Shown: in pieces, positions 7,886 through 58,376 of the stretch
Numbering within the stretch: position 1 is the first letter of the stretch
How the letters are laid out: each line of letters starts with the position of its first letter
Origin: Dehalococcoidia bacterium
GTDB lineage: Bacteria > Chloroflexota > Dehalococcoidia > Lucifugimonadales > UBA3495
Assembly (NCBI GenBank): GCA_965197565.1
Contig: CBDANK010000002.1
Coordinates: 841,403-905,402 of the forward strand
DNA: 64,000 nucleotides
Direction: 5' to 3'
Notes under the pieces: generated by a model
What the model was told of the DNA's origin: nothing
The model's database searches: none
The model's input: the letters and a program-made list of their open reading frames with translations, nothing else
Position numbers and translations under genes: made by a program

Positions 7886-8812
<927 letters not shown>

Positions 8813-9106
8813 CGCCGGCGCACCCGCTCCACCGTGGCCCTCCCCACATTCAGGGACCGGGCTATCTCCTCGTCCTTCATCGGGCCTTCAGTCTGGTTCT
8901 CATCGCTTAACAGCAGAATTCGGGCATGGGTCTGCCGGTAAGCTGCCGCCCGCCCCTTGGATACCAGCGCCTTCAGTTCCTGCCGCTCCTCCTCCCCCAG
9001 CCCTACCCGGTATTTCTTCACCATCACTCCCACCTCACTTCCTCCAGTTTACCCTCGACTGACCATTATACCCTATCGCCCATCAATGCAAGTGGGTTAG
9101 TCCACT

Positions 9107-10728: not shown

Positions 10729-11889
<1,161 letters not shown>

Positions 11890-14695: not shown

Positions 14696-15836
<1,141 letters not shown>

Positions 15837-15846
15837 ACCCTAATAT

Positions 15847-16054
15847 GAGACCTTTGCGTAACTGGTCGCTTAACTTGTCATTCCGACCGGAGGGAGGAAT
15901 CTAAGGCGTTGGGCCGGAGTCGTCGCGCCGGTCCAGCTACGGACCCAGTACTTGCTGACATAGGTTTGAGATTCCTCACGGAGTTTATCCTGAGCGCAGC
16001 CGAAGGGCTTCGCTGCGTTCGGAATGACAGGGATGGGGGTTATGCAGAGGTCTC
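15847..16054. repeat. MITE-like repeat, family B (TIR GAGACCTTTGCRTAAC), copy B1
   Basis: It is about 90% identical to 53250-53478 and, in inverse orientation, to 31248-31455. It contains GTCATTCCGA...GGAATCTAA hairpin modules. Confidence 0.8.
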
Positions 16055-16161
16055 AAATATATAGTATTGACCTGGCCCAAAGCCCGGTGGATAATTGTTG
16101 CTGTTATGAGGCAGGTATCCCACTACTACCGTTGCTATAGTGGTAAAAGGGAGTGTGAAAC

Positions 16162-17289: not shown

Positions 17290-17373
17290 AAACCGGCACT
17301 CCGCCGGACCAAACCTTGGCTCTCAGCAGGCGCTCCTTAAGGGAGCGCCTGCCGTTTGTTATCCGGAATTCCC

Positions 17374-17720
17374 CAGGGTCTTTTCATTGTCATCCCCGGC
17401 CTACACCAGGGCAGGCTCTGAGCCACTCTTCATTGTCACCATGAACGGAGTGAAGTCTAGGGCCTGTTGACGCTAATGGCTGGGGGCCGGGCAACCACAA
17501 GGGTTGCCCCTACGAAATCCCGTAGCACACCGGTTGTAGAGGCGCCCTTTGTGGGAGGCTGGACTACCAATCCCTATATAGGAAATTGGTAGTGTCAACA
17601 GGCCCTAAAATCCTTGACTGTATTCTCTTTCTTAGATACTCAAACCACATTCTTGCTGAAGAGTTTTAGATTCTTCGCCTACGGCTCAGAATGACATTTT
17701 CCGAGAATGAAAAGACCCCG
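17374..17720. repeat. MITE-like repeat, family A (TIR CAGGGTCTTT...), copy A1, carrying a nested element
   Basis: The ends CAGGGTCTTTTCATTG... and ...GAATGAAAAGACCCCG are homologous to A2-A5. It is 137 bp longer because of the insert at 17460-17605. Confidence 0.75.
17460..17605. repeat. nested palindromic element with TA target duplication
   Basis: The TIRs are GGGCCTGTTGAC... and ...GTCAACAGGCCC. Host MITE copies read GTCTAAAGTCC where A1 reads GTCTA[insert]TAAAATCC. Confidence 0.65.
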
Positions 17721-31240: not shown

Positions 31241-31247
31241 GGGTATT

Positions 31248-31455
31248 GAGACCTTTGCATAACCCCCACCCCGGTCATTCCGAACGCAGCGAAGCCCTTC
31301 GGCTGCGCTCAGGATAAACTCCGTGAGGAATCTCAAGCCTATGTCAGCAAGCACTGGGTCTGTAGCTGGATCGACGCGATGACTCTGGCCCAACGCCTTA
31401 GATTCCTCCCTCCGGTCGGAATGACAAGTTGAGCGACCAGTTACGCAAAGGTCTC
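31248..31455. repeat. MITE-like repeat, family B, copy B2 (inverse orientation)
   Basis: The ends are GAGACCTTTGCATAAC... and ...GTTACGCAAAGGTCTC. It is homologous to 15847-16054 and 53250-53478. Confidence 0.8.
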
Positions 31456-38268: not shown

Positions 38269-38478
38269 CAGGGTCTTTGTATTGTCACCCCCGGCCTACG
38301 CCGGGGCAGGCTCTGAGCCTTTCGGCTAGGCTCAAGATAAACTCCGCGAAGGGTCTAAAGTCCTTGTCTTCAATGCCGTTTTGCTGCCGAAACATCTTAG
38401 ATTCTTCGTCGTAAGCTCCTCAGAATGACCGGGTGTGGCAGCCTGTATTCACCTAACATTGAGAATCGAAAGACCCTG
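38269..38478. repeat. MITE-like repeat, family A, copy A2, with a 10-bp target duplication
   Basis: The ends are CAGGGTCTTTGTATTG... and ...GAATCGAAAGACCCTG. They are flanked by GGGGCGAGAG (38259-38268 and 38479-38488). Confidence 0.85.
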
Positions 38479-39734: not shown

Positions 39735-39959
39735 CGGGGTCTTGTCATTTTCGGAAATTGTCATTCTGAGCCGTAGGCGAAGAATCTAAAAGCCTTCAGC
39801 AAGAACCTGGTCCGAATAACGAATAAAGAGAATGTAGTCAAGGGTTTTAGACCCCTCGCGCAGTTTATCTTGAGCCTAGCCGAAAGGCTCGGGGTGACAT
39901 GGCAGAGTGGCTCAGAGCCTGCCCCGGCGTAGGCCGGGGGTGACAATGAAAAGGCCCTG
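39735..39959. repeat. MITE-like repeat, family A, copy A5 (inverse orientation), with a 10-bp target duplication
   Basis: It is flanked by GTTTGGATTG (39725-39734 and 39960-39969). Confidence 0.8.
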
Positions 39960-40088
39960 GTTTGGATTGAGGCTGTTGACGTGGGATTCTTGGGACCCTT
40001 AGGAAGATGAGTTGAGTGGCGCCAAACATTTTTAATTGGACCAGCCGAAAGTAGCCGGCAGTGTCCTGCCAAGAGGTGGATGCGCAGC

Positions 40089-46879: not shown

Positions 46880-47088
46880 CAGGGTCTTTCTATTGTCACC
46901 CCCGGCCTACGCCGGGGCAGGCTCTGAGCCACTCTCCAATGTCACCCCGAGCAGAGCGAGAGGTCTAAAGTCCTTGTCTTCAATGCCGTTTTGCTGCCGA
47001 AACATGCTAGATTCTTCGTCGCAAGCTCCTCAGAATGACCGGGCGTGGTAGTCTGTATTCACTTAACATTGAGAATAGAAAGACCCTG
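46880..47088. repeat. MITE-like repeat, family A, copy A3, with a 10-bp target duplication
   Basis: The ends are CAGGGTCTTTCTATTG... and ...GAATAGAAAGACCCTG. They are flanked by GTTGGGGGAG (46870-46879 and 47089-47098). Confidence 0.85.
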
Positions 47089-50628: not shown

Positions 50629-51245
50629 TGCTTGGTTCCTGCGCGCCGTTCATCGTATTTGAAGGTCTAGACGGCTCGGGGAAGAGCACTCAGGCCCGGC
50701 TCCTATTAAGACGTTTACGGCGGAGAGGCCGGCCGGTCTTGTTGACCCGCGAGCCCGGCGGGACGCCTTTGGGAGAGGCTCTACGTCGTTGGCTAAAAGG
50801 CCGCCGGCATCTTCCACCCATCGCCGAATTGTCTCTATTTATCGCAGCTCGAGCCCAGTTGGTTAATGATGTTGTCGGTCCGGCTTTGCAAGGCGGCGTA
50901 ACAGTCGTCGCCGACCGTTACGCCGCATCTACTGTGGCCTACCAGGGCTATGGGCGGGAATTGGGCTTGGAATTGGTCCAAGAACTGAATCAAGCAGCCA
51001 CCGGCGGCTTGACTCCTAGCCTGACGGTGTTGTTGGACCTTCCGGTGGAGGCGGCCCTGGGCCGGAAGGGTAGTCCGGAGACGGACACTTTTGAAGCGGC
51101 GGCCTCTGAGTTTCACCTCAGAGTGCGAGACGGTTACCTCGCTCAAGCGGCCCAAGGCCAAAGCCACTGGCTGGTATTGGATGCCACGCAGCCTCAAGCA
51201 GTGCTTTCGAGGCAGATTTGGTCAAAAGTACAGCCCCTCCTGTAA
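50628..51245 (+). CDS. tmk: dTMP (thymidylate) kinase
   Basis: FIVFEGLDGSGKSTQ, LTREPGGT and DRY are present. The ATG overlaps the upstream TGA (50626-50630). Confidence 0.9.
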   Translation: MLGSCAPFIVFEGLDGSGKSTQARLLLRRLRRRGRPVLLTREPGGTPLGEALRRWLKGRRHLPPIAELSLFIAARAQLVNDVVGPALQGGVTVVADRYAASTVAYQGYGRELGLELVQELNQAATGGLTPSLTVLLDLPVEAALGRKGSPETDTFEAAASEFHLRVRDGYLAQAAQGQSHWLVLDATQPQAVLSRQIWSKVQPLL

Positions 51246-51293
51246 AGAAGGGGCTGTGATTTTAACGGGCTTGCGGCGCGCCAAAGTGCCTAG

Positions 51294-51578
51294 CTAATCA
51301 TCGGCTGGTGCCGGCTCCAGAACGTCGATTCTTTCTTGAATGATCTCCCGCATGGCGCGGACCCGTTTCAGGTCGGGGAAAATTCCTCCCTCACCCAACT
51401 TATCGAAAATCCTCTCCCCATCGACGAAGACCTCCATGATTCCCTGGCCTCTCGGGGAGATGGTCACCGAGACGTCTGGCCCAAAGTGCCGGAAAAACTC
51501 ATTCGCCATCCACGTGGCGGTGCCTAGGTGCTGTCAAGGTACGCAGTAAGTGATCTCTACTTGAGCTTTGCCTTCCAT
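51294..51578 (-). CDS. SelW/SelT/Rdx-family protein with an in-frame UGA at the CxxU position (candidate selenoprotein)
   Basis: The product is MEGKAQVEITYCVP-TGA-QHLGTATWMANEFFRHFG...VFVDGERIFDK...FPDLKRVRAMREII. The TGA is codon 15 (+ strand TCA 51534-51536). The RBS GGAGGG lies 7 nt before ATG 51578. The ORF track reports only the part after the TGA (51294-51509). Confidence 0.7.
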
Positions 51579-51660
51579 CGGGGAACCCTCCATCGGCTGA
51601 TTGTTTGGAAGCCGAAGTTTAGTATAACCTAAATCCCCGGCAAGTCAATTCACACCCGCC

Positions 51661-51870
51661 CAGGGTCTTTCTATTGTCACCCCCAGCCTACGCCGGGGCA
51701 GGCTCTGAGTCTTTCGACTAGGCTCAAGATAAACTCCGCGAAGGGTCTAAAGTCCTTGTCTTCAATGCCGTTTTGCTGCCGAAACATCTTAGATTCTTCG
51801 TCGCAAGCTCCTCAGAATGACCGGGCGTGGTAGTCTGTATTCACCTAACATTGAGAATAGAAAGACCCTG
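51661..51870. repeat. MITE-like repeat, family A, copy A4
   Basis: It is about 95% identical to A2 and A3. The flanks ACACCCGCC and ACACGGAGCC are not a clean duplication. Confidence 0.8.
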
Positions 51871-51960
51871 ACACGGAGCCCCATCATCACATGCTCGCCG
51901 GGGGCCGCCGGAGCACAACAAGCGGCGAATACGGAGCGTTGGTTCAGCGCAGCCCTATAC

Positions 51961-52779
51961 TTGGCAGCGCGCAATGGCGTACTGCTGGCAATCCTGGCAT
52001 TCAGCGCCTACTTCCTGTCTGCCATTATCCTGGAAAACGGCTATGTCCTGCTTTCCGAGGACCAACTCTTCGAGTACTGGACTGTCGCTCTCTATCTGGC
52101 AAGCGCCCTCGTTTGCTTGCTAGGCCCTTGGGTTGTAGGCGGCGCCTCCCGCGTCACTCGGTACTGGCTAGTGGGATGGGGAATACTGTTCTTATTGGTG
52201 GCCTTAGAAGAGCTAAGCTGGGGCCAAAGAATCTTTGGTGTAGACACGCCGGAGTTCCTGATATCCCGCAACCAGCAGGACGAGACCAACTTCCACAACC
52301 TGGAATCGGAAGGGGTGGACCGCTTATTTGCTTCCTTGGTTTTTGCGGTGGCTATAGCCCTCCCTTCCCTGGCCCTATTGAGCAAAAGGCTCAACTCCCT
52401 GGTCCGGCGCTACGGGATTCCTTTGCCCCAATGGGAACTGGTGGTCCCGTTCTTGTTGGCTTTCGCTTTCTTTGTGCCGGCGTGGTTTGCTTCCGCGCCT
52501 GAGACGGAGGTGCTAACCGGCCTTGCAGTGCTCTGGTTAGCCTTCCTGTTAGTAGCCAAGTGGAGGGGCGGCGAGACGGCATTTGCTGGAATTAGCATCT
52601 TTCATTTGCTGGCGGGGGTGGTGGGCCTGGTTGCGATTCAAACCGTATTGGCGGTCTTCGAAGGAAACCCGGGCCACCGCAATCATCCCACTGAAATCAA
52701 GGAGTTCCTGTTCTCCTTTTGTTTCCTAGGGTTCTCTCTCCGTGCAGCACTGCCAGGTTTAGGCAAGATAACCCTTTGA
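51961..52779 (+). CDS. polytopic membrane protein, unknown function (start uncertain)
   Basis: It has about 7-8 hydrophobic helices. The only in-frame ATG (51817) lies inside MITE A4. The first start candidate after the MITE is TTG at 51961. Confidence 0.55.
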   Translation: MAARNGVLLAILAFSAYFLSAIILENGYVLLSEDQLFEYWTVALYLASALVCLLGPWVVGGASRVTRYWLVGWGILFLLVALEELSWGQRIFGVDTPEFLISRNQQDETNFHNLESEGVDRLFASLVFAVAIALPSLALLSKRLNSLVRRYGIPLPQWELVVPFLLAFAFFVPAWFASAPETEVLTGLAVLWLAFLLVAKWRGGETAFAGISIFHLLAGVVGLVAIQTVLAVFEGNPGHRNHPTEIKEFLFSFCFLGFSLRAALPGLGKITL

Positions 52780-53249: not shown

Positions 53250-53478
53250 GAGACCTTTGCGTAACTGGTCGCTCAACTTGTCATTCCGACCCCCACCCCT
53301 GTCATTCCGACCGGAGGGAGGAATCTAAGGCGTTGGGCTAGAGTCGTCGCGTCGGTCCAGCTACAGGCCCAGTGCTTGCTGACATAGGTTTGAGATTCCT
53401 CACGGAGTTTATCCTGGGCGCAGCCGAAGGGCTTCGCTGCGTTCGGAATGACACGTGAGGGGGTTATGCAAAGATCTC
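53250..53478. repeat. MITE-like repeat, family B, copy B3
   Basis: The ends are GAGACCTTTGCGTAAC... and ...GGGGGTTATGCAAAGATCTC. They are flanked by CACCAG (53244-53249 and 53479-53484). Confidence 0.8.
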
Positions 53479-55621: not shown

Positions 55622-55632
55622 GGTTGGTCCTT

Positions 55633-58376
55633 CTACCCCAACTGCTCCAGGATGTCGTCCAAGCGTTGCTTGCGTTCACTAAGCGACCTCAGGCGCTCTT
55701 CTTCATTTTCAACCACTTCTGGCTTGGCCTTGGCTCGAAAGTTTGGGTTGGACACTAGGGCCGACACCCGGTCCAGGTTTCTCATGCAGTCGTCCCGGTC
55801 TTTGCGGAGCCGTTGTGTCTCCGCTTCCAAGTCTACCACGCCTTCCAGGGGCAACCGGACTACCAGGGGACTCACCACCAAGGCGATGCCTTTAGCAGAG
55901 CTATCCCGCGGGGAATCTTTGGCAAGGATACGCAGCGGCTCCACCCGGGAAAGTGTCCGTATGACCTCCGCTTCTTCCTCGATGGCGCGTTGCTGGCCGT
56001 TGGCCTCGACCAGGGCCTCCAAGTGTTGATTGGCCGGGATGCGAAGCTGGGCCCGCGCATTGCGCACCGCCCGAATAGCCCGCATAACCAGGGAAATCTC
56101 CTCTTCGGCCCGGCTGTCTCTGCGGACGCCGTCGGCCTGCGGGTAGGGGGCGACCATTATGGACTCCGGCAACCCCCCTTCCTGGGGTAGGACTGTTTGA
56201 AGGTTCTGCCAGATTTCTTCGGTAATGAAGGGCATGAAAGGATGCAGCAACCGCAGCGTCCGCTCCAGCACATGGGCCAAGACGGGCAATGGAGAGGGAG
56301 TGGAACCCGACCGTAATCGTATCTTGGCCATTTCGATGTACCAATCGCAGTACTCATCCCAGATGAAGTCGTATAGCTTCTGCTGGGCCTCTCCTAGCTC
56401 GAAGTTGTGCAGCGAATCATTCACCTCGTTGGTGAGCCGGTCCAACCGGCTCAATATCCAGCGGTCTTCCCGGTGTTCCACCGCGCCCAAGTGGTGCCAA
56501 CCGTCCAAGCCGGATTTGCCTTTCAAGCTGGTGTGTACGAAGCGGGCTGCGTTCCACACCTTGTTGGCGAAGTTGCGGGCCGCTTCCAGTCTGCTCTCGG
56601 TAAACCTCAGGTCGCTGCCCGGAGCAGTGCCGGTGGTCAGGGCGAAACGGAGGGCGTCGGTGCCGTAGCGGTCCACCAACTCCAAGGGGTCCATGGTATT
56701 GCCCCTGGTCTTGCTCATCTTGGCGCCCGTGCCGTCCCGGATCATCCCGTGGAGGAAGACGGTGCGGAAAGGCGCTTGGCCGGTGTTCTCGATGCCCAGC
56801 ATGATCATGCGGGCGACCCAGAAAAACAGGATGTCGTAGCCTGTCTCCAACACCGAGGTGGGGTAGAAATAGCGCAAGTCTTCGGTGTCCTGCGGCCAGC
56901 CCAGGGTTGAGTGGGGCCATAAGCCGGAGCTAAACCAGGTGTCCAACACATCCGGGTCTTGATTGAGCCGCACAGACTGGCAGGAAGCGCAACCAGTTGG
57001 GTCTTCCACCGATACGGTCAAGTGGCCGCAATCCTCGCAGTACCACACAGGAATCCGGTGTCCCCACCACAGTTGCCGGCTGATACACCAGTCCCGGATA
57101 TTCTCCAGCCAGTTGAGGTAGACTCGGGTGAACCGCTCCGGCACCACTCGGATCTCGCCCCCGGCGACGGCGGCGTGGGCCCGCCCGGCGATGCTGTCCG
57201 GTTGCTCGTGGCTGCCCAGATTCACGAACCACTGGAGGCTGACCAAGGGTTCGACCACCGAGGCGCATCTTTGACAGTGGCCCACCGAGTGGCGGTATTC
57301 CTCCACCTTTTCCAAAAGCCCCAGGGCTTCCAATTCGGAAGCGACTTCCCGCCTGACCTGGAAGCGGTCTACGCCAGCGTACTTGCCGGCGGCGCCGTTC
57401 ATATTTCCATCCAAGCCGATGACCGTGAGAATCTCCAGTTGGTGCCGCTGTCCTATCTCGAAGTCGACTTGGTCGTGGCCCGGCGTCACCTTTAGCGCGC
57501 CGGAGCCGAATTCCTGGCTGATGGCCTGATCACCGACTATCGGTATGCTGCGGCCCATTATGGGAAGCGCGGCCCGCCGCCCCAGTAGCCGCTGATAACG
57601 AGGGTCTTCCGGATGCACCGCCACTCCGGTGTCGCCCAACATAGTCTCGGGCCGGACCGTAGCGACCGTAATGTAACCCGGCTCCAAGGTTGGGTTTCAT
57701 TTGTTTGCGTGACATCGGAATTGACGGGCAGGGACTCTTCTTCGAGGGGGTAACGTATAAAGTACAGGGAGCCTTCCAGTTCTTGATAGTCCACTTCCAA
57801 ATCGGAGAGAGCCGTGGAGCAGCGGGGGCACCAGTTGATTATCCGCTCGTGGCGGTAAATAAGCCCCTTGTTGTACAGGTTTACGAAAGTGGTCCTGACC
57901 GCGCGGCTGGGACCAGGGTCCAAGGTGAACCTATGCCGGTCCCAATCGGCCGACACGCCCAGACGCCGTGATTGCTCGTGGATGATGCCGCCGTACTTTC
58001 GGACGTGTTCCCAGACCAGCCCTTCGAACTCCTCCCGGCCCAACTGGTGGCGGTCCCTTCCTTGAGCGGCCAGTTGCTGTTCCACGGCCCATTGGGTGGC
58101 GATGCCGGCGTGGTCGGTGCCGGGGAGCCACAGGGTCGGATCCCCCAACATGCGATGCCAGCGCACCAAAGCGTCTTCAGTGGCCTTCTCCAAAGCGTGG
58201 CCCAAGTGCAACTCGCCGGTGACGTTGGGCGGAGGCATGATAACGGTGAAGGGTTGCTTGCTTGGGTCCACATGGGGCGCGAAATAACCCTTGGCCAGCC
58301 AATTCCGGTAAAGTCGCTGCTCCACCGTGGCGGCGTTATAAGTGCTGGGAATTTCGGCGGAGGGCCTGGAGGTCAT
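55633..58376 (-). CDS. valS: valine--tRNA ligase, split by a 1-nt frameshift at ~57689-57696
   Basis: The N-terminal part (57558-58376) has PPPNVTGELHLGHA (HIGH). The C-terminal part (55633-57696) has TVRPETMLGD, KMSKTRGN (KMSKS) and a coiled-coil tail. The frames change within ACCCAACC. Confidence 0.9.

Follow-up and report, generated by a model that had tools for sequence, protein, structure and literature searches.

The SelW-like locus and its surroundings

The window, i.e., the whole stretch of 64,000 nucleotides analyzed here, which stems from a marine Chloroflexi (SAR202/Dehalococcoidia) bacterium, carries on its minus strand a predicted selenoprotein coding sequence of the SelW-like/Rdx type (51294..51578), which comprises 94 sense codons, one of them UGA, and a stop codon. 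The frame runs from an ATG at 51578 (codon 1) to a TAG at 51296-51294 and is interrupted by a single TGA (51534..51536). This TGA is codon 15, the predicted selenocysteine and the second redox position of a C12-V-P-U15 motif. The invariant Cys12, the resolving partner in this CxxU motif, is encoded by TGC (51543..51545). The translation reads MEGKAQVEITYCVP[TGA]QHLGTATWMANEFFRHFGPDVSVTISPRGQGIMEVFVDGERIFDKLGEGGIFPDLKRVRAMREIIQERIDVLEPAPADD, where the part behind the TGA starts with QHLGTATWMANEFF. A Shine-Dalgarno sequence, GGAGGG (51586..51591), precedes the ATG with a 7-nt spacer. In consensus scans, a promoter-like TTGACT-16 nt-TATACT with 10/12 matches was found on the minus strand about 45 nt 5' of the start codon (51621..51648), and terminator-like sites were found on both strands 3' of the gene. 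One of these, a hairpin (51252-51234) that forms a minus-strand site with its T-run (51224..51252), lies 3' of the stop codon and is common to the convergent tmk. The gene is monocistronic.

The program-made ORF list opened the gene at an internal ATG, Met24 (51507..51509), and hence reported a product of 71 residues. This ATG, which lies inside a hairpin discussed below, is also the start used in public gene calls; we found no Shine-Dalgarno sequence 5' of it. A further in-frame ATG is present at 51593, five codons 5' of the ATG at 51578. It occurs in the window and in a 98.9%-identical contig (L001) and is absent from the 79 orthologues of other genomes; we rejected it as a start because it is specific to the window strain. 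The segment around it (51579-51593, minus strand) resembles a small local duplication (CGATGGAGGG / CGATGGAAGG), and this upstream ATG overlaps the Shine-Dalgarno sequence. The positions that the first-pass annotation had given for the ATG, the GGAGGG ribosome-binding site with its 7-nt spacing, the TGA, the methionine codon at 51509 and the hairpin all agreed with the sequence, as did its translation.

On one side, the gene is neighbored by the housekeeping genes pdxS, pdxT, an R3H/SpoIIIAA-like ATPase gene and tmk, and on the other side by an unknown membrane protein, aroC, aroE and valS. Many orthologous loci resemble the window in having a tRNA-Phe gene some 5 kb downstream of the gene, often with tRNA-Gly next to follow. 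A search of the IMG/VR viral contigs found no relative of the SelW-like gene, which is therefore not phage-borne. In the window, valS (minus strand, 58367..55623) is split into two overlapping frames at about 57691. Contig L001 has an intact valS (914 aa) with one extra base at the equivalent position; the split stems from an indel made in assembly or, alternatively, from a true frameshift in this essential gene.

The window also contains several repeats. A dispersed repeat of about 210 nt is present at 51661-51870, 38269-38478 and 46880-47088, with copies 89–96% identical and partial copies near 17372-17440 and 39833-39960. It has terminal inverted repeats (CAGGGTCTTTCTATT...AATAGAAAGACCCTG) and resembles a MITE. 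The copy at 51661-51870 is situated directly upstream of the promoter-like site of the SelW-like gene and overlaps the predicted start of a divergent ORF (51817-52779). A second intergenic family of about 180–210 nt with 93–95% identity (15847-16056; 31246-31455, reverse; 53250-53478) probably also represents a MITE. The first 16 kb of the window are rich in insertion-sequence remnants; here, diverged repeat pairs of about 1.1 kb (662-1764 and 7892-8995, 80%; 10763-11842 and 14715-15788, 73%) cover transposase-like ORFs. A gathering-level Rfam match to the self-cleaving type-P5 twister ribozyme (RF02684; 6795-6850, plus strand; 44 bits against a gathering threshold of 37.6, full-length model 1-58) sits in a 1.2-kb gene-poor gap beside such transposase-like ORFs.

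Conservation and family membership of the frame across the UGA

A scan of GTDB species representatives yielded at least 193 loci with a relative of the SelW-like gene. We kept the best 80, all from Dehalococcoidia, SAR202 or Chloroflexota MAGs, and 78 of these, together with the near-identical contig L001 and the window, made up our set of 80 sequences. Codon 15 is TGA in every one of them. The two kept loci outside the set (L030 and L056) had escaped the motif filter and carry the same in-frame stop at the position of codon 15. All 79 orthologues of other genomes share the same reading frame. The N-terminus MEGKVQ[IL]EITYCV[PS] is conserved, and the 15 codons 5' of the ATG are unconserved in the orthologues and often contain stops. 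In codons 3–13, third positions vary synonymously while the amino acids are near-invariant; we therefore conclude that this translated sequence is under purifying selection. Cys12 is invariant in 79 distinct coding sequences with synonymous TGC/TGT variation. All 80 sequences have a purine-rich, Shine-Dalgarno-like motif, GGAGG in most cases, at 5–10 nt 5' of codon 1, in surroundings that are divergent otherwise.

Given this conservation, a sequencing or assembly error at the TGA, or a pseudogene decaying in this particular genome, has next to no probability. At least one single-base indel is indeed probable in the window, namely the one in valS found by comparison with the 98.9%-identical contig. 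The same TGA, however, recurs in 79 other species-level genomes, which include many independent assemblies, and in short-read contigs, and purifying selection acts on both sides of it. These two observations already refute an error or a pseudogene.

Global reassignment of TGA (code 4 or 25) was ruled out as well. Among the 55 non-overlapping long ORFs of the window, 23 end with TGA, 19 with TAG and 13 with TAA. TGA is thus the most common ordinary stop in the window, hence the code is not reassigned and any read-through must be local.

We analyzed the family membership of the complete frame with U replaced by C. The 94-residue form scored 56.2 bits (cutoff 22.6) with Pfam Rdx (PF10262), where it covered positions 1-68 of the 74 in the profile, and 38.5 bits (cutoff 34.2) with TIGR02174 (CXXU_selWTH). 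The 71-residue form from Met24 reached 26.7 bits and entered the Pfam profile only at position 19. In a phmmer search of the PDB, six Rdx structures were retrieved (2OKA, 2OBK, 2FA8, 2P0G, 2OJL and 3DEX; E 9e-11 to 1e-6). Four of them were deposited as 'Hypothetical protein' (2OKA), 'SelT/selW/selH selenoprotein domain' (2OBK), hypothetical protein Atu0228 (2FA8) and 'Selenoprotein W-related protein' (2P0G). In the alignments with 2OKA, 2OBK and 2FA8, I-x-Y-C-x-x-C stands opposite I-T-Y-C-V-P-U; i.e., their ITYCTQCQWLLRAAWLAQE segments align to ITYCVPUQHLGTATWMANE, and the TGA falls on the second Cys of CxxC. The first-pass annotation had placed C12-V-P-U15 in the register of the Rdx family, and the PDB alignments agree with this placement.

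The alignments with these Cys-type Rdx structures cover residues 2-86 (E 9e-11 to 3e-9) and share the pattern I-x-Y-C-x-x-[C/U]-x-(W/H)...A-x-W-[LM]-A-x-E. With similarities at E of about 1e-10 over these residues, a thioredoxin-like β-α-β-β-β-α fold is predicted. The Cys-type proteins have CxxC where the SelW-like gene has CxxU and hence need no recoding element. More distant full-length metagenomic relatives, five Cys homologues, carry CVPC, CFHC, CLQC or CSVC at the CxxU columns, and Cys12 remains invariant in the alignment with them. The homologue alignment at the TGA column that had been suggested in the first-pass annotation thus finds Cys at this position in the metagenomic relatives as well as in the solved structures. 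C12-V-P-[TGA]15 lies directly after the N-terminal β-strand, the position of the CxxU/CxxC motif in the family. We conclude that the gene in all likelihood encodes a 94-residue Rdx/SelW-like protein with a predicted Cys12-x-x-Sec15 active site at the end of the first β-strand.

Public databases present the gene differently. A protein search listed 431 relatives. Among the best 120, almost all have 70–71 residues, and those that we read begin at Met24; some of the short relatives bear the JGI name 'predicted Rdx family selenoprotein'. Seven of the best 120 have 103–105 residues with Trp at the TGA column. We fetched the DNA of one of these Trp versions, and its codon is TGA; the Trp residue therefore stems from calling with genetic code 4.

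If the UGA were a genuine stop, the product would be the 71-residue protein from Met24, and the 14 upstream codons would be a separate short uORF or an untranslated leader. The 70–71-residue length of most listed NCBI/JGI relatives would fit this, as would the Met24 form on its own, which passes the Pfam Rdx cutoff (26.7 versus 22.6 bits). The Shine-Dalgarno-like motif, however, stands before codon 1 in all 80 sequences and not before Met24. Moreover, codons 1–14 show synonymous changes but keep their amino acids, and the upstream codons match positions 1-18 of the Rdx profile, including CxxC, and add 30 bits. A protein starting at Met24 would be left without strand β-1 and without both redox residues. 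We hence consider termination at the UGA very improbable. The first-pass annotation had named a lack of conservation in the N-terminal 23 codons as a finding that would speak against the extended gene; instead, these codons are conserved as protein, and without them the Rdx match falls from 56.2 to 26.7 bits. Met24 is not the real start. Judged from these sequences, the public proteins of 70–71 residues are gene-calling truncations at Met24, by which the active site is cut off.

A conserved hairpin downstream of the UGA

A hairpin CGCCA-CGUGGA-UGGCG (51504..51519, minus strand) with a stem of 5 bp and a loop of 6 nt, in which GU occupies loop positions 2–3, follows the UGA within the coding sequence. 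It starts 14 nt past the UGA, and its loop starts 19 nt past the UGA. The first-pass annotation had suggested that this hairpin could be a bacterial SECIS. Its loop, stem, G position and spacing, its covariation and its frozen synonymous sites speak for this proposal, whereas the folding of the single sequence is no better than chance and lends it nothing.

The 76-nt region folds worse than its shuffled versions (z = +2.2 for the single sequence). The isolated 18-nt hairpin has −7.4 kcal/mol (z = −1.8); within 48 nt it reaches −8.3 kcal/mol, and the RNAalifold consensus gives −7.67 kcal/mol, to be compared with a bSECIS threshold of ≤ −7.5 kcal/mol; the energy is therefore borderline. Because single-sequence folding gives no support, we dropped it as SECIS evidence and used covariation instead.

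Each of the 59 distinct sequences forms all five hairpin pairs, and RNAalifold predicted exactly the 51519-51504 helix and no other. The closing pair is CG in 47 of the 59 sequences, UA in 7 and GC in 5, and it is broken in none. Its two partners are synonymous sites, namely the third bases of codons 20 (Thr or Val) and 25 (Ala). On a neighbor-joining tree built without these two columns, at least four independent double changes were needed to account for it. The other four stem pairs cannot or do not vary, so that covariation rests on a single pair because only one of the five can vary without a change in the protein (Trp and Met have single codons). The 14-nt core GCCA-CGUGGA-UGGC is invariant in all 80 sequences.

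Synonymous sites point in the same direction. Out of 17 conserved four-fold-degenerate codons, 15 vary, with third-position entropies of 0.85–1.89 bits. The only invariant four-fold sites of the gene are Ala21 GCC, which is part of the stem, and Thr22 ACG, which supplies the loop G. Protein constraint cannot explain these frozen third positions, RNA constraint can. As read from these alignments, the evidence that the hairpin exists beyond chance is comparative and not thermodynamic.

We compared the hairpin with the constraints for bacterial SECIS elements given in Fig. 2 of a 2026 review, i.e., an apical loop of 3–9 nt, an upper stem of 4–16 bp, a G in the first two loop positions within N1-G-[G/U]-N-N2-N, where N1 and N2 are pairable, 16–37 nt between UGA and loop, and a minimum free energy of ≤ −7.5 kcal/mol (PMC13188914). 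The 6-nt loop CGUGGA and the 5-bp stem are both within this model. G stands at loop position 2 and is followed by U, C1 and G5 are pairable, and the spacing of 19 nt falls within the range.

Further comparison was made with the SECIS of E. coli fdhF, as read from NC_000913. It shares with the SelW-like gene a UGA-C context and a hairpin within the coding sequence, and the apical-loop G-U lies at nt 23–24 from the U of the UGA in fdhF and at nt 24–25 in the SelW-like gene. The fdhF element is an extended helix of 40 nt (−14.9 kcal/mol) with a bulged U. In contrast, the SelW-like gene keeps the 5-bp stem only (−7.4 kcal/mol), and no lower helix is predicted.

The covariance-model search that had been proposed for the hairpin region was run with Rfam on both strands of 51440-51600 and returned no family, even with E relaxed to ≤ 10. 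Since Rfam covariance models generally miss the short and diverse SECIS hairpins of bacteria, this null result weighs little. A consensus scan flagged the hairpin as an intrinsic terminator. We rejected this candidate: the U-run consists of Phe codons that vary between TTT and TTC in the orthologues, and the sequence 3' of it is conserved coding sequence.

Selenocysteine as the probable residue at codon 15

We searched for selenocysteine machinery at the locus. With E. coli SelA, SelB and SelD (NC_000913) as queries, tblastn against the window and the 80 loci (about 1.6 Mb of flanks) found nothing at E ≤ 1e-3. Neither ARAGORN nor Rfam detected a tRNA-Sec in the 64 kb of the window or within ±10 kb of the 80 loci; tRNA-Gly and tRNA-Phe were the only tRNAs of the window. 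Linkage of Sec machinery to the SelW-like locus was thus ruled out within the window and the orthologue flanks. We listed 233 TGA-joined ORFs in the window and inspected the ones that connect long ORFs or lie in gaps free of genes; none of these resembled a redox protein. When 14,668 in-frame TGA contexts from all loci were clustered, the SelW-like gene formed the only convincing cluster (81/81 sequences); the remaining clusters were discarded, since they were conserved genes translated off-frame or in antisense. A scan anchored on the hairpin (TGA, 9–18 nt, 5-bp stem, GU in the loop) likewise gave junk apart from the SelW-like gene.

The lineage as such has been reported to use selenocysteine. 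BSepDB, which admits only species with two or more Sec-pathway genes, records a Sec pathway for Dehalococcoidia bacterium UBA1141 and places it, with 49 selenoprotein genes, in the top ten of bacteria; it also lists another MAG, with 46 selenoprotein genes, from the same series as many of our orthologue loci (PMC13326102). One of our loci (L015) is a UBA1141 contig, and its orthologue has the same TGA and hairpin. Moreover, there is a description of tRNA-Sec species from Chloroflexi (PMC5389517), and a metagenome study whose scope includes SAR202 found SelA and SelB together in most sponge-symbiont bins of various phyla (PMC5649159).

The UGA might be translated with a residue other than selenocysteine, i.e., with Cys by a tRNA-Sec-like tRNA(Cys), with Trp by near-cognate read-through, or by a lineage-specific suppressor, and the hairpin would then be a generic stimulator of read-through. 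The window without Sec machinery and the minimal size of the hairpin would be compatible with this. UGA-C is a weak termination context, and it is found in 80/80 sequences, where U precedes the UGA in 79/80. Against such decoding, the TGA coincides precisely with the Sec/Cys position of a family with well-documented Sec forms (PMC1088965, PMC2398784), loop and spacing fit both the SelB-type bSECIS model (PMC13188914) and the geometry of E. coli fdhF, and the lineage is reported to be rich in selenoproteins and to have the Sec pathway (PMC13326102). In addition, a single mutation would suffice to give a Cys codon, but all 80 sequences retain TGA, which argues for a Sec-specific advantage. We therefore regard insertion of another amino acid as improbable and conclude, at a probability of roughly 90%, that the UGA at codon 15 encodes selenocysteine.

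For selenocysteine insertion we propose the following mechanism. Translation begins at the ATG at 51578 behind the conserved Shine-Dalgarno sequence, as the comparative data show. At the UGA (51536-51534), the hairpin (51519-51504) would show its loop to SelB carrying Sec-tRNA(Sec). With the loop C-GUG-G-A and its G-U at 24–25 nt from the U of the UGA, selenocysteine would be inserted instead of termination; geometry, covariation and family precedent suggest this SelB-dependent step. The product would then probably cycle between selenolate/thiol and selenenylsulfide as a small thiol-dependent oxidoreductase, as expected from its CxxU motif and family. Because no redox partner is linked at the locus, we infer any function past that of a CxxU thiol/selenol oxidoreductase only indirectly.

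The gene closely resembles the SelW-like selenoproteins known from marine bacteria (Sargasso Sea, GOS; PF10262/TIGR02174). Both have the same domain, a CxxU after the first β-strand, a length of about 90–100 residues and an N-terminal Sec-UGA that is followed by an in-frame bacterial SECIS hairpin (PMC1088965, PMC2398784). The group described here differs from them in being specific to Dehalococcoidia/SAR202, with a near-invariant N-terminus MEGKVQIEITYCV[PS]UQH and the invariant core GCCA-CGUGGA-UGGC. Mammalian SelW (SEPW1) also belongs to the Rdx family and has CxxU at the same structural position. Its SECIS, in contrast, resides in the 3'-UTR and works with SBP2/eEFSec, whereas the element found here lies within the coding region directly past the UGA, as in bacteria. 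For SelW, a thiol-dependent, glutathione-linked redox role was proposed, and from phylogenies, independent evolution was suggested for at least some of the bacterial and eukaryotic members (PMC1088965).

SelW-like CxxU proteins are already the most abundant selenoprotein family of marine bacteria. The gene is therewith very probably a genuine selenoprotein gene of a well-known type that is systematically mis-called, and it brings no new system, mechanism or family. Its novelty is modest and lies in a very compact, sequence-invariant hairpin common to the lineage. With two frozen synonymous sites and one covarying synonymous pair, the alignment shows a natural minimal SECIS with unusual clarity and could help to refine bacterial SECIS models. 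More speculatively, and with considerable doubt on our side, GCCA-CGUGGA-UGGC may be a compact SelB recognition module specific to the Dehalococcoidia/SAR202 lineage, which would work without a lower helix at the energy edge of bSECIS elements and might have co-evolved with the unusual tRNA-Sec of Chloroflexi. If so, the core module would be a minimal natural SECIS and would help to find the approximately 13% of bacterial selenoprotein genes that escape current SECIS models.

The chief value of the finding lies in annotation, i.e., in the extension of the public 'Rdx family' fragments to the 94-residue CxxU form. This correction touches a conserved gene of SAR202/Dehalococcoidia, abundant bacteria of the deep ocean and of sponges, and at least 193 species-representative genomes carry it. 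It also adds to the view of these bacteria as heavy selenium users.
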